14,471 bases of DNA, taken from contig JAYNIA010000059.1 in assembly GCA_038108555.1 (NCBI GenBank), positions 1 through 14,471 on the forward strand, in the 5' to 3' direction. Every line of letters starts with the position of its first letter. Within the stretch, counting starts at the first letter, position 1. The DNA is from Nitrospinota bacterium (lineage in GTDB: Bacteria > Nitrospinota > Nitrospinia > Nitrospinales > VA-1). Under the pieces are notes generated by a model, which was not told where the DNA came from, ran no database searches, and saw only the letters and a program-made list of their open reading frames with translations. Position numbers and translations under genes: made by a program. This document shows, piece by piece, positions 947-9,339 of the stretch.

Positions 947-978
947 TGGTAGTCCCAAGGGGAATCGAACCCCTGTTT
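947..978 (-). pseudogene. Duplicated 3' fragment of a tRNA-Glu (variable loop, T-arm, acceptor 3' strand, CCA)
   Basis: Minus strand reads AAACAGGGGTTCGATTCCCCTTGGGACTACCA. Positions 949-978 match 1054-1083 at 29/30. Confidence 0.9.
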
Positions 979-1018
979 TACCCGTTCCGGGCATGAAATT
1001 TAAGGATGAGGATATCAC
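979..1018 (-). mobile_element. Miniature hairpin-ended dispersed element, copy 1 (40 bp)
   Basis: Minus strand GTGATATCCTCATCCTTAAATTTCATGCCCGGAACGGGTA, homologous to 8360-8398 and 8459-8496. It abuts the tRNA fragment exactly. Mobility is inferred. Confidence 0.65.
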
Positions 1019-1054
1019 ATCAGCGTTTTTTCTCACGCCTCCACGTTAGTGGAG

Positions 1055-1126
1055 TAGCCCCAAGGGGAATCGAACCCCTGTTTCCGGCGTGAGAGGCCAG
1101 CGTCCTAACCGCTAGACGATGGGGCC
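1055..1126 (-). tRNA. tRNA-Glu (anticodon CTC), CCA not encoded
   Basis: Cloverleaf: acceptor GGCCCCA/TGGGGCT, anticodon arm CTGGC-CTCTCAC-GCCGG, T-arm AGGGG-TTCGATT-CCCCT, discriminator A followed by CTC rather than CCA. Confidence 0.95.
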
Positions 1127-4970: not shown

Positions 4971-6887
4971 TTATTTGGCTTTATCGGGATTGACCAGATA
5001 AGTGTAGCCGCTAAGTCCTTCCTTATAAAGACTCAGAAAATCATCGGCCTCTTTTTGTGTGACCACTCCCCGTTGCACACAGCCGATGAGGAATCCATCA
5101 ATACGTCCGGCGAGTTCATCCGCTGAAAATTGCACATAGTCGAGCACATCGGTTACATCCTCACCTTCGATGATCTGTTCGTATTTCAACGAACCATCAT
5201 CGTTCAGCGAAACATGAATCGTGTTGGTGTCGCCGAACAGGTTGTGAAGGTCGCCGAGAATTTCCTGATAGGCCCCTGTCAGGAAAATGCACAAAGGATA
5301 AGTTTCACCAGGTTCTAACGGATGCACCCGAAGCGTATTTTCTGTACCTCGATTGGTGCCGATGAAAGTATCTATTTTGCCATCGGAGTCACAGGTGATG
5401 TCTTCCAATGTTGCATCGCGGGTGGGTTCCTCATTTAATCGATAAAGTGGAACCACTGGGAACACCTGATCAATCGCCCATGAGTCGGGGACAGATTGAA
5501 ATATGGAAAAGTTGCAGAAGTATTTATCCGCCAGGCGGGTTTTCAGGCTCCGAATTTCATCAGGCATGAACTTGAGCCGCGTGCTCAGCTTTTCAATTTT
5601 ACGGCAGATGCCCCAGAAAATTCGTTCCGCCATGGCACGGCTTTCAAGAGAGATCAGTCCCAGCAAAAACTGGTTCTGCGCTTCATCTTTTAAATGCACC
5701 GCATCGTGCCAGGACTCGTTCAGGTTTTTATTAGAAGTGGAGTCGAGCACATGGAAAATTTCTTTGACCACTTCGGGAGCCTCTTCGTCAATCTCAATGG
5801 TATCGCTCCATTCGGGAAAGCTGGTGACATCAAGCACGTTGACCACCAGAATGGAATGATGCGCCGTCATGGCTCGTCCCGATTCTGAAATGATGTTGGG
5901 GTGCGGCAGGTTTTCCTTGTTGCAGATTTCCAGAAGGTGATAAACAACATCGTTCGCATACTCCTGCACGGTATAATTGGTGCTGGATGCGAAAGTGGAG
6001 CGCGAACCATCGTAGTCCACTCCCAGTCCGCCACCGACATCTATATATTCAATACCGCAACCGAACCGCATCAGTTCGGAATAAAAACGGCCCACTTCCT
6101 GCAAACTGTTTTTGATTCGGCGGATATTAGTGATCTGGCTGCCCAGATGGAAATGGATCAGCTTGATACTGTCGAGAATGTTTTTCTCTTTCGCAATTTG
6201 AAGAGCTTCCATTAACTCGATCGAGTTCAAGCCAAACTTGGAGTGTTCCCCGGCAGAAGAAGACCAGCGTCCCTGGCCGCTACTTAATAGCTTGATACGC
6301 AATCCGATATTGGGTTTGATTCCCAGTTCCCTGGCTACTTTTTCAATGAGAGAGAGCTCGTCCAGTTTTTCCACAACGATGAAAACTTTTTTCCCCAGCT
6401 TCTGACTCATCAGTGCTAACCGGATAAAAGCCTCGTCTTTATATCCGTTGCAAACGAGCAGGGCTTCGGGATTATCGAGAATGGCGAGAATGGCGTGCAG
6501 CTCGGGTTTTGATCCCGCTTCCAGTCCGATATTGTAGGGTTGGCCGAATTTTACGATTTCCTCAACGACTTGGCGTTGCTGGTTGACCTTGATGGGGTAG
6601 ACTCCGTGGTATTGTCCGTTGTAGTTGTATTCGTTGATGGCCTTACTGAAAGAATTTGCCAGGTTGGCGATACTCGCTTTCAGGATGTCAGAGAACCGGA
6701 TGAGGACGGGCAGGGAGTAGCCCTTTTCCTGGATATCGTCGACCAGTTCCTTGAGGTCTATATCATGCCGGCTTTGACGATTGGATCGGACGACGATATT
6801 GCCCTTGGCATTGATATCAAAATAACCCGCACCCCAGCCGTCAATATTATAATGTTCACGGGCTTCTTCAATCGTCCACTTCGGCAT
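4971..6887 (-). CDS. speA: Biosynthetic arginine decarboxylase
   Basis: 638 aa; YPIKVNQ (PLP Lys), GLEAGSKPEL, HFHLGSQ, DVGGGLGVDYDG, ESGRA, NFSIFQSVPDSWAIDQ, TCDSDG, GAYQEILG. Confidence 0.97.
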   Translation of the reverse strand: MPKWTIEEAREHYNIDGWGAGYFDINAKGNIVVRSNRQSRHDIDLKELVDDIQEKGYSLPVLIRFSDILKASIANLANSFSKAINEYNYNGQYHGVYPIKVNQQRQVVEEIVKFGQPYNIGLEAGSKPELHAILAILDNPEALLVCNGYKDEAFIRLALMSQKLGKKVFIVVEKLDELSLIEKVARELGIKPNIGLRIKLLSSGQGRWSSSAGEHSKFGLNSIELMEALQIAKEKNILDSIKLIHFHLGSQITNIRRIKNSLQEVGRFYSELMRFGCGIEYIDVGGGLGVDYDGSRSTFASSTNYTVQEYANDVVYHLLEICNKENLPHPNIISESGRAMTAHHSILVVNVLDVTSFPEWSDTIEIDEEAPEVVKEIFHVLDSTSNKNLNESWHDAVHLKDEAQNQFLLGLISLESRAMAERIFWGICRKIEKLSTRLKFMPDEIRSLKTRLADKYFCNFSIFQSVPDSWAIDQVFPVVPLYRLNEEPTRDATLEDITCDSDGKIDTFIGTNRGTENTLRVHPLEPGETYPLCIFLTGAYQEILGDLHNLFGDTNTIHVSLNDDGSLKYEQIIEGEDVTDVLDYVQFSADELAGRIDGFLIGCVQRGVVTQKEADDFLSLYKEGLSGYTYLVNPDKAK

Positions 6888-7042: not shown

Positions 7043-8278
7043 ATGAAAATTGAAAATGTCGAAGTCCAGGAAATAGCCAGTCAGTTTGGCACGCCTGTTT
7101 ATGTTTATAGTCTGGAAATTCTGCGCCAGTCCATCAATGAGATAAAAAAGCTTTCCCCCGTGGTCCGTTACGCGATGAAGGCCTCGTCCAATGTGAAAAT
7201 TTTGCAGGAGATGCTGGCAAATGGAGTGAAGATCGATGCAGTGAGTGTCTACGAAGTTCAACGCGCCATTCGCGCCGGATATAAGGCTGAAGACATTTGT
7301 TTCACCAGCGATGTGTTTTTCAATGCCGACGATGTGAACTATTGCCTGGAAAATAATGTCTACTGCAACTGCGGAACGCTGGGGATGGTTGAAGAATATG
7401 GCCAAGCACTCAAAAAGCAGGGAAAAGGCTCCTCTAAAATTTCAATTCGTATCAATCCGGGAGAAGGGGCAGGGCATTCCAAAAAAACCAATACAGGTGG
7501 ACCCTACAGCAAGCACGGTATCTGGTACCAGAATCTGGATGAAGTTAAAGCGTTGTTGAAGAAGTACGACCTCATTTTATCAGGTGTGCATATGCATATC
7601 GGTTCCGGCGGCGATATGGAACATCTCAAACGCATCACCGGTAAGCTTGTAGATTTTGCAAAGGAATTCCCGGATGTGGAGCAGATTAATTTCGGCGGAG
7701 GACTGCCATACCAGTATGACCCTGATCAACCACAGGAAGATATTTCCGGTTATAAATCGATTATCGATGAGCGTGCACGAGTATTGAAAGAACATTTTGG
7801 CAGGGAAGTGGTATGTGAAATCGAACCCGGAAGACGCTTTGTAGCAGGCTGCGGATATTTGATTGGCGAGGTGCGATCTCTCAACCACACCTTCGATGAA
7901 GATGGAAAACGCATCGACTATGTTCTAACCAATGTTGGATTCTGTCATTTGATTAGACCGATGGCCTATGGTTCGTTTCACCCTATTTGGTTCGATGGTG
8001 AAGGCCTGGGGCCGGAGCAGGATCTGATCATTGCCGGTCCGGTTTGTGAGTCGGGAGATGTATTGACACAAAAAGATGAGGAGCCGGTTCCTCGAAAACT
8101 TCCGATGCCAAAGGCCGGGGATTGTATAGTAATCGGCGGGGCAGGGGCTTATGGGCATGTCATGTCCTCCAACTACAATTCGCAACCTCTCATTCCAGAA
8201 GTGATTGTTGATGGCGACCAATGCACGTTGACGCGCAAACGCCAGACGCTTGATGACATTATGCAAGCTGAAGAATAA
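7043..8278 (+). CDS. lysA: Diaminopimelate decarboxylase
   Basis: GTPVYVY, YAMKA (PLP Lys), RINP, HMHIGS, GGG, EPGR, LIRPMAY, GPVCESGD, GAYG, SNYN. Confidence 0.9.
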   Translation: MKIENVEVQEIASQFGTPVYVYSLEILRQSINEIKKLSPVVRYAMKASSNVKILQEMLANGVKIDAVSVYEVQRAIRAGYKAEDICFTSDVFFNADDVNYCLENNVYCNCGTLGMVEEYGQALKKQGKGSSKISIRINPGEGAGHSKKTNTGGPYSKHGIWYQNLDEVKALLKKYDLILSGVHMHIGSGGDMEHLKRITGKLVDFAKEFPDVEQINFGGGLPYQYDPDQPQEDISGYKSIIDERARVLKEHFGREVVCEIEPGRRFVAGCGYLIGEVRSLNHTFDEDGKRIDYVLTNVGFCHLIRPMAYGSFHPIWFDGEGLGPEQDLIIAGPVCESGDVLTQKDEEPVPRKLPMPKAGDCIVIGGAGAYGHVMSSNYNSQPLIPEVIVDGDQCTLTRKRQTLDDIMQAEE

Positions 8279-8300: not shown

Positions 8301-8414
8301 AAATCCCCCCAACCCCCTTCGTAGAAGGGGGTGCTTTAATGGACCCCTCTTTTGTAAAGTACCCTTTCAGGGCATGAAATTTGAGGGAGAAGTATTACGG
8401 AAGGGAGGGGATTT
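8301..8414. repeat. REP-like inverted doublet (C-rich hairpin family), right arm interrupted
   Basis: Terminal inverted repeat AAATCCCC/GGGGATTT. Left arm hairpin ACCCCCTTC-GTA-GAAGGGGGT. After removing 8360-8398 the right arm reads AAATCCCCTCCCTTCCCTTT-ACA-AAAGAGGGG on the minus strand and aligns with the left arm. Confidence 0.75.
8360..8398 (-). mobile_element. Miniature hairpin-ended dispersed element, copy 2 (39 bp)
   Basis: Minus strand GTAATACTTCTCCCTCAAATTTCATGCCCTGAAAGGGTA. The last 23 nt match copy 1 at 21/23, and the two differences are a compensatory base pair. Confidence 0.7.
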
Positions 8415-8440
8415 CAATTTCTTTTCATCAACTTTCTACT

Positions 8441-8569
8441 GTCATTGCGAGCGTAGCCGTGATATTTGACCGATAGCTTCGTGCCCGGCACGGGTAGTGG
8501 CAATCCAGCGTCTCTTTTTTAAATCTTAAATTCTGGATCGCCACGTCGCCATTGGCTCCTCGCGATGAC
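8441..8569. repeat. Palindromic REP/RPE-like element (GTCATTGCGAG...GTGGCAATC family), left arm interrupted
   Basis: Outer IR GTCATTGCGAG (8441-8451) / CTCGCGATGAC (8559-8569) 10/11; inner IR GTGGCAATCCAG (8497-8508) / CTGGATCGCCAC (8533-8544) 11/12; AT-rich spacer. Confidence 0.8.
8459..8496 (+). mobile_element. Miniature hairpin-ended dispersed element, copy 3 (38 bp; may include C8458)
   Basis: GTGATATTTGACCGATAGCTTCGTGCCCGGCACGGGTA. The first 7 nt are identical to copy 1 and the last 19 match at 17/19. Removing 8458-8496 restores GCGAGCGTAGC-GTGGCAATCC. Confidence 0.7.
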
Positions 8570-8602
8570 GATATTTTCCGGAATTTAGCATGCTGGTGGT
8601 TT

Positions 8603-8908
8603 CTAAAATAGCGGGTCAATTTTCTGTGCCATTTGTACATCGGCAAGGGTGACGCCGCTGACCGTATGTGTCCAGTATCTTACTGAAATCCGTTTGTAGT
8701 TTATGATGATATCGGGATGGTGATTATTGTCTTCCGCGGCCTGGGCTACCTTTTCTACAAAGGCAATTCCTTCCATGAATTTTGAAGCGTGGTGCACCCG
8801 CTCGATATAGGGCACGCCTTTTTCGTTTTTCCCGGTTTTCCATTCCGGCGCCATCTCTTTCAACTTTTCTTCCAGTTCCTGTTCGGTCAAAGCCGTTTTT
8901 TCTACCAT
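8603..8908 (-). CDS. phhB: Pterin-4-alpha-carbinolamine dehydratase
   Basis: F..GIAFV.KVA..AE..NHHPDI, WTH..SGVT..D...A..ID pattern; GGAG SD. Confidence 0.9.
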   Translation of the reverse strand: MVEKTALTEQELEEKLKEMAPEWKTGKNEKGVPYIERVHHASKFMEGIAFVEKVAQAAEDNNHHPDIIINYKRISVRYWTHTVSGVTLADVQMAQKIDPLF

Positions 8909-9197: not shown

Positions 9198-9203
9198 TAA
9201 AAT

Positions 9204-9233
9204 AAACCCCCTCAATCCCCCTTATCAGGGGGA
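9204..9233. repeat. Single arm of the C-rich REP-like hairpin family
   Basis: AAACCCCCTCAA-TCCCCCT-TATC-AGGGGGA, same layout as 8301-8331. Confidence 0.65.
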
Positions 9234-9339
9234 GGAATAAAAACCAAAAAAAGGTTGGTTACTTAAAACTTATTTCCAGAAGCTTTTACATGTGTCTTGG
9301 TAAAAATGTTTTGACCTAATCCCATCGGGCGAGGCCCGA

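Follow-up and report, generated by a model that had tools for sequence, protein, structure and literature searches.

The window, a 14.5-kb contig analysed here whole and belonging to the genome G000 (2.9 Mb, 92% complete), carries three copies of a 39-41-nt family that is almost certainly a non-autonomous mobile element, without any gene, of the Nitrospinaceae (Nitrospinota). The element occurs in marine nitrite-oxidising bacteria at dozens to hundreds of sites per genome. It probably moves as one folded DNA strand with paired ends, and we infer that it is mobilised in trans by an enzyme. A sequence-only reading of the window had proposed a very small non-autonomous element that lands in structured DNA, and this description is upheld by nested insertions, by a host repeat in the relative G001 that lacks the element, and by empty sites that fold stably. 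The three copies are present on the strands reported by that reading, with right ends as reported, while each left end lies one base further out (Table 1). The extra left base is taken as part of the element since nested self-insertions and the host-repeat consensus are restored exactly only in this way.

Table 1. Copies of the element and neighbouring features in the window.
Feature	Position	Strand	Remarks
Duplicated tRNA-Glu 3' half	948..978	-	right flank of copy 1; degenerate anticodon-stem arm resumes at 1020-1028, on the other side
Copy 1	979..1019	-	41 nt; T at base 1, paired with the A that precedes the hairpin; closing pair G-C
Intact tRNA-Glu(CTC)	1054..1126	-	source of the duplicated fragment
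Pyridoxal-dependent decarboxylase gene	7043..8278	+	flanking; lysA-like by our own reading
C-rich/G-rich host repeat	8302..8414		split by copy 2; orthologous G001 site has the repeat without the element
Copy 2	8360..8399	-	40 nt; closing pair T-A; end-to-end pair is a C/A mismatch (minority class)
GTC-tagged palindromic host repeat	8440..8508	+	split by copy 3; halves 8440-8457 and 8497-8508, read directly from the sequence
Copy 3	8458..8496	+	39 nt; C at base 1, paired with the G that precedes the hairpin
Copy 3, TTCR tetranucleotide	8478-8481	+	last two bases pair with element bases 1-2
Copy 3, terminal hairpin	8482..8496	+	6-bp stem, invariant G·T pair, GNA triloop
Pterin-4a-carbinolamine dehydratase family gene	8603..8908	-	flanking

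Copy 1 does adjoin the tRNA-Glu fragment, as had been noticed earlier, but rather than merely abutting it the copy sits at the 3' foot of the anticodon stem within a degenerate duplicate. The same tRNA-Glu position is also occupied in G001, G024 and G041, by different variants. In G041, a spare full-length tRNA-Glu-like gene (C1, about 835,360-835,590; L327) is interrupted at the anticodon loop by one copy and at the anticodon-stem foot by two more, and an intact tRNA-Glu(CTC) lies elsewhere in that genome. In the window, the stretch between tRNA-Glu and copy 1 (1020-1053) contains two short hairpins, including an inverted stretch resembling the anticodon arm. At the decarboxylase/dehydratase locus, eight of 11 relatives have a gap of 3-4 bp, one has unrelated DNA and one a contig end; the eleventh, G001, has the same host repeat free of the element, so that an empty orthologous site, a check suggested by the sequence-only reading, is on record. 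The type of repeat split by copy 2 also flanks DUF559 genes in G041. The repeat split by copy 3 has its inverted partner at 8533-8570 and may be labelled CGTC-type by resemblance to the repeats described in the available part of PMC3733652.

G000 holds about 39 copies; of the outcomes that would have refuted the sequence-only reading, neither a lack of further copies, nor a lack of empty sites, nor a constant place in the host repeats came about. An nhmmer search of that genome returned 40 matches at E<=1, 39 of which passed a hairpin filter, and the reversed genome gave 0 at this threshold; a 19-nt right-end pattern gave 19 exact matches against 0 for the pattern read backwards, and a strict 15-nt hairpin pattern gave 23, nearly all with the left-end motif about 25 nt upstream. 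A permissive peeling script yielded 43 copies, about four of them apparently false by eye, and the statistics based on 43 include those. The part of G041 that was read (2.46 of 2.86 Mb) holds 399 copies, 31 being outer layers that span 78-159 nt and at least two looking like false matches. The full pattern is present in 38 of 120 Nitrospinota genomes, with up to 343 exact matches per genome and 0 in the control. It occurs in 36 of the 69 other genomes of the family, with 6/6 in genus g9, 21/23 in another genus and 5/16 in the genus of the window. A GTDB-wide scan found at least 128 matching stretches, and 78 of the 80 titled ones are Nitrospinota; the two other titles (KSB1 and Marinimicrobia) are probably misbinned records, since their genes are 54-85% identical to G041 and G000 proteins. 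A few viral contigs carry copies, one 50-kb contig having several, and the remaining viral matches consist of the right end without a left end. By blastn with one copy each, plasmids gave a single 26-nt partial match (E=0.1) and phages no match. In an Rfam search of the window the element was unmatched, and the matches at E<=1 were two tRNAs, a T-arm fragment and a sub-threshold antisense match on tRNA-Glu.

The consensus, read 5' to 3', is Y-G-T-(G/T)-A-T-A-T, a pyrimidine-rich variable middle with a conserved CC, T-T-C-R, and then a hairpin with a 6-bp stem, a G-N-A loop and the end G-G-G-T-A. The length is 39-41 nt in 347 of 352 copies. All four bases occur at the middle of the loop, and the middle of the element is very variable (mean identity 46% among 26 39-mers of G000). 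In some variants, bases 1-11 resemble a promoter box of the extended -10 type. A Watson-Crick pair links base 1 to the base directly preceding the hairpin in 452 of 516 distinct sequences (TA 265, CG 173, AT 14), the rest being CA (33), TG (14) and others (17), so that C/A or T/G stands there in 47, about 9%, copy 2 included. The second pair, between base 2 and the next base out, is GC in 474, GT in 22, AT in 5, AC in 12 and other in 3. The end-to-end pair holds inside G000 alone (TA 21 and CG 16 of 42; p=7e-9), in G041 taken separately, and in 131 new metagenome sequences (TA 53, CG 43, AT 4, GC 1, CA 28, TG 2; p=2e-12), where CA is commoner (28/131) than among the 516. When each of 128 target clusters contributes a single copy, no other usable internal covariation is as strong (z=52); next to it stands the closing pair (z=34), whose covariation the sequence-only reading had correctly picked out. 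In a tree of 272 39-mers built without the end-pair columns, and rough because the sequences are so short, 55 and 65 changes are required when the two positions are taken singly and 77 when they are taken together. Of the near-identical pairs, 117 differ at one end-pair position and 64 at both, which indicates that single changes do occur.

Given this pairing of bases 1-2, joining the ends would extend the stem from 6 to 8 bp, with the junction two pairs above the stem base. One stem pair is G·T; this pair is canonical on the top strand in 96% of sequences and on the bottom strand in 4%, and the full stem is possible on the top strand only. The invariant G·T pair and the GNA loop point to one folded DNA strand. 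GNA mini-hairpins of DNA, with any N, are described as much more stable than their RNA counterparts in the accessible part of PMC13037366.

The earlier observation that no target is duplicated was sustained, as overlap lengths at 220 non-tandem events equal those of shuffled flanks. Terminal inverted repeats and target duplication, the features of MITEs, were tested and are absent, and so is a core common to the element end and the target, the right end sharing no base in 177 of the 220 events and the left end in 193. The 255 events fall into 162 different site classes. In G001, the element lies inside its own loop up to five deep, the layers closing last-in, first-out, and self-insertions occur at several element positions on both strands. 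A repeated intergenic 11-mer is touched by 21 of the 43 sites in G000, compared with 260 of 1500 intergenic positions drawn at random, and the predicted folds of the empty sites are more stable than those of random intergenic DNA (-6.15 vs -3.7 kcal/mol, p=2e-7). Because identical host-plus-guest composites recur at unrelated sites, the unit probably moves with cargo; re-insertion at hot spots is the alternative. Many copies in G041 and G042 lie in intergenic mosaics with deep nesting, surrounded by other small hairpin units that recur and that may be further tiny mobile families.

The target has G at -5 in 189 of 255 events and in 109 of 137 in a new metagenome set, A at -2 in only 3/255 and 5/137, and mostly a purine at -3. 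This preference 5' of the cut resembles the last five bases of the element, and for each of the two cuts it therefore seems to be the 5' side that is read. The preference varies with the element variant: T at base 1 accompanies C at -2, and T at base 4 accompanies G at -1 (p about 1e-5 when each site class is counted once; p=7e-4 and 0.03 in the metagenome set). Several other rules were rejected. There is no fixed position in the host hairpin over 127 sites. As for the middle acting as a programmable guide, right-flank complementarity was suggested by one lineage, column covariation rejects it, and longest-complement tests on 255 events all gave |z|<2. The swapped right ends predicted by a four-base coupling-sequence model were not found. 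No in-frame insertion was seen in conserved genes, the two apparent cases in G041 looking like false matches.

Copies nested in a loop (examples are L102, L119, L129, L132 and L171) show one irregularity. The 5' arm of the host reads GAGC instead of CCC in 8 of 35 loop-nested hosts versus 0 of 604 un-nested copies (p=4e-11). Donor flank may sometimes replace target bases -4/-3, as hosts and guests differ, yet the altered 5-mer is a common target in host repeats. In tandem units, the end of the resident is intact in 40 of 41. The 5-nt loop is common to adjacent units with different middles in 12 of 17 pairs, where shuffling gives 4.8; when the expectation is made partly genome-specific, the figures are 11 of 17 and 5.6 (p=0.003). 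Such sharing, seen in G024, G041, G042 and others, could come from heteroduplex repair after one-strand insertion or from later slippage. In contigs of four DNA runs from one study, no joint skips a copy, although such contigs cannot exclude skipping. Among the runs listed as containing this DNA none was of RNA, and no circle of the element was observed.

We tentatively favour movement of the folded strand through a circle whose junction lies in the 8-bp stem, carried out by a putative single-strand DNA transposase acting in trans; that the strand transfer follows HUH-like chemistry is held just as tentatively. The folded strand would be excised, with its two ends meeting at a nick in a continuous helix, and would be closed into a predicted circle with the junction inside the 8-bp stem. 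It would then be transferred into a single-stranded or extruded hairpin elsewhere, and replication would fix the insertion. The enzyme would read sequence 5' of both cuts, as HUH Y1 transposases do. In favour of this reading, TTCR sits at the 5' foot of the hairpin, where IS200/IS605 and RAYT hold their guide tetranucleotide. Counted against it are the absence of Y1_Tnp from four of five genomes, the roughly 9% of mismatched end pairs and the absence of a bias towards the lagging-strand template (57 vs 82 clusters, p=0.04 in the opposite direction, on one chromosome of which 86% was read; 48 vs 61, p=0.25, without composite repeats). A bolder version, which is conceivable but which we rather doubt, is a minimal single-stranded DNA circle moved by an undescribed class of transposase that would seal and open a nick inside the 8-bp hairpin, read a few bases 5' of the target cut, accept at least 120 nt of internal cargo and sometimes carry donor flank. 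If true, undescribed transposase chemistry would explain the Nostoc small dispersed repeats, and scar-free insertion would be available with a 39-nt recognition unit.

The mover was not found among the genes covered; Y1, RT, IS110, Ssn-like and DUF559 proteins do not track the element; the enzymes suggested by the sequence-only reading (Y1 of IS200/IS605 or RAYT, IS91, IS110) fared no better. Pfam Y1_Tnp is absent from four of five element-bearing genomes, including the single-contig chromosomes G041 and G042, and in the single genome with a Y1 gene no right end of the element lies within 1.5 kb of it. Y2_Tnp was found in 0/5 genomes by a search that was silent in control genomes as well, RVT_1 in 2/5, G000 not among them, and IS110 in 3/5, G000 and G044 being those without a match. 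The richest chromosome has only two tyrosine recombinases, of 300 and 309 aa and thus XerC/D-sized. No convincing HUH-motif protein was seen among the called G041 genes of up to 330 aa (2.46 of 2.86 Mb), and 505 genes found only in G041 were screened for motifs and copy number. G041 and G000 have 148 non-syntenic genes in common, and the 108 of at most 420 aa were scanned; those that look mobile are one HNH protein, one RNase_H_2 protein, and stand-alone GIY-YIG and DUF559 nucleases, the genes of the latter two being flanked by host repeats of the element. The search, incomplete as it is, covered non-syntenic genes, a minority of the G041-only genes and 2.46 Mb of G041.

Over 70 genomes, neither GIY-YIG (Ssn-like) nor DUF559 presence tracks the element. 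An Ssn-like query matched none of the six genomes of genus g9, all element-bearing, and missed G000 at E<=1e-18; DUF559 is absent from G096 (85 element matches) and present in G010, G020 and G021 (0 element matches). Stand-alone GIY-YIG as defined by Pfam is positive in 34 of 34 genomes and does not discriminate. No recurrent flanked nuclease was seen among 664 neighbouring ORFs or 26 doubly flanked G041 genes, nor, judged by eye, among 68 unmatched metagenome neighbours. The suggestion that the element is the remnant or scar of an insertion sequence found no backing, as a long or gene-carrying version was not seen in G000, in the loci or in those parts of G041 that were read; the half-ends left over in G041 look like the products of deletion or decay. 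A role of the junction as the origin of a small virus was also rejected, since none of 13 exact matches to the junction pattern in viral contigs continues as the element.

It is unlikely, though it fits part of this survey, that the folded DNA is nicked by a small structure-specific nuclease belonging to the host repeats (an Ssn-type GIY-YIG or a DUF559 protein) and that host ligase or repair joins the freed strand into other hairpins. These are the mobile-looking genes common to G000 and G041 and flanked by invaded repeats, and the paired ends would form a ligatable nick. SsnA itself cuts single-stranded DNA beside its hairpin according to the available text of PMC11893778, but that cut is upstream of the hairpin whereas the element lands inside such hairpins. 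Moreover, neither gene tracks the element, and a plain nuclease alone leaves the precise joining of two ends unexplained.

We consider it quite improbable that a reverse transcriptase inserts an RNA copy whose 3' hairpin end is fixed and whose 5' end is settled by short homology to the target. The end pair and the stem fold as RNA too, the middle is very variable, and bases -4/-3 differ from the host arm in the 8 loop-nested hosts described above, as if 5' flank had been carried along. Against this, the left end is as a rule precise, the free choice of N in the GNA loops speaks for DNA, RVT_1 is confined to two of five genomes without G000, and orientation between co-directional genes shows no bias (42 sense, 37 antisense, p=0.65). 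A recombinase, either a bridge-RNA IS110 enzyme in trans or an integron-like tyrosine recombinase on the folded circle, seems very improbable. An IS110 element does recognise the hairpin loop, and head-to-tail tandem arrays with a stem split between the ends resemble integron cassettes; the stems of integron attC sites are likewise completed only in the circle. However, IS110 recombination centres on a shared core in the accessible part of PMC11208160, and no core is shared here at most events; the guides of IS110 correspond to the loop and to the end of the IS itself rather than to the element junction; and IS110 was not found in G000 or G044, nor does the richest chromosome offer more than its two XerC/D-sized recombinases. 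Finally, the notion that the element is a constant part of host repeats, spread by amplification and gene conversion, draws on G041 composites amplified together with their host repeat and on the loops often shared by adjacent tandem units, which suggest gene conversion, and is largely refuted by the 162 site classes, the self-nesting at several positions on both strands, the same host repeat empty at an orthologous site, and four independent events at one tRNA position with different variants.

The nearest known elements, compared by description only, are SDR1-8, the small dispersed repeats of Nostoc punctiforme and its relatives. Footprint-free insertion of very small repeats was reportedly described in 2008, when Elhai et al. 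are said to have presented SDR1-8 of Nostoc punctiforme as 21-27 nt long, self-nesting and with compensatory structure; to our knowledge, no mover of SDRs has been named. In the portions of the articles that were available, the Nostoc repeats are very small, non-coding, dispersed and precisely inserted into other repeats (PMC4390886, PMC2884548, PMC3116915), with a length of about 20 nt (PMC2884548) and an insertion of SDR5 into HIP1 (PMC4390886). Like SDRs, the present element inserts precisely without target duplication (220 events), lies inside other repeats and its own copies, and shows compensatory changes of structure. Unlike them, it is 39-41 nt long, belongs to a different phylum, has ends that pair across the junction, and follows the rule of G at -5 rather than one fixed site. 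We therefore rate the kind of element as already known from Nostoc SDRs, the additions being the end-to-end pair, the target rule on the 5' side, a probable tolerance of cargo and an IS110 parasite.

The preferred reading, a folded strand moved by a single-strand DNA transposase, draws on comparison with REP/REPIN-RAYT and IS200/IS605. The accessible parts of the literature describe a tetranucleotide 5' of the hairpin foot that sets the cut by base pairing in both (PMC3479197, PMC6006769), two guide bases that straddle the cut in RAYT (PMC3479197), and single-strand specificity with circular single-stranded intermediates in IS200/IS605 (PMC3479197, PMC6006769, PMC3733652). The element shares, as far as these parts go, the pairing of a hairpin-foot tetranucleotide with bases at the cleavage site. 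It differs from REP/RAYT in its tag, TTCR rather than GTAG, in having both paired bases 3' of the cut, and in flanking no Y1 gene. In contrast to IS200/IS605, one hairpin serves both ends instead of two subterminal ones, G at -5 alone is strongly preferred in place of a tetra- or pentanucleotide target, and there is no preference for the lagging-strand template. CGTC repeats and SRM with the Ssn GIY-YIG, in the available text of PMC3733652 and PMC11893778, are likewise short dispersed hairpins that act as single-stranded DNA without a classical transposase, but the element has no GTC tag, is not palindromic over its length and flanks no nuclease gene. The CGTC-looking repeats are the hosts of the element, not its family; the published SRM pattern matched 0 of 43 empty sites in G000, so that the host repeats are merely CGTC-like. 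A non-autonomous derivative of IS110 would differ in having a core common to junction and target. In a search largely confined to papers outside subscription, no paper naming the mover of such repeats and none on this Nitrospinota family of 39-41 nt was found. The family makes the question of the mover testable, as the end-to-end pair predicts an exact intermediate, and the simple target rule, over 500 natural variants and a presence pattern across 120 genomes are resources for finding the enzyme.

The element is itself a landing site. G042 has 24 IS110 matches, and among 15 IS110 loci examined (13 in G042, one each in G041 and G043) the right junction lies in the loop of the element in 14, on the bottom strand and with a CT core; the G043 locus has no end motifs. 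The loop-inserted 1.2-kb element occurs at L209 and L212-L223 of G042, at L210 of G041, and at L078, which adds one more junction. The left non-coding end of this IS110 has two predicted internal loops with stretches matching the target on either side and the donor on its left; the right donor guide was not located by script. IS110 is thus a parasite of the mini-element, with the loop as its landing site. Bridge RNAs as described in the accessible part of PMC11208160 similarly have target- and donor-matching stretches in loops of the IS110 left end, and the REP-targeting IS621 and ISPpu10, in the available text of that article and of bioRxiv 10.64898/2026.03.19.712850, likewise combine a repeat-hairpin target, a CT core and guides like those of bridge RNAs, whereas the target here is itself a mobile mini-element without a core of its own. 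IS110 guides that match the loop mean that a transposon tracks a smaller mobile element as its landing site.

A second element of the IS110 family, with subterminal inverted repeats, lies in a GTC-type host repeat on a metagenome contig (L465:1860-3305). It stands between two copies and was considered as a gene-carrying version, which was rejected as its own inverted ends lie inside the host repeat. At positions 1-504 of the window, a minus-strand gene for a predicted secreted protein, cut off by the contig end, has a 63-bp tandem repeat that encodes a 21-aa Ala/Ser-rich unit. Inside the long decarboxylase gene, contigs of three runs depart from the window at clustered sites in 5649-5754, which reflects either a strain difference or an assembly chimera, and contigs of three runs break at 9202-9235, where another C-rich/G-rich repeat lies.
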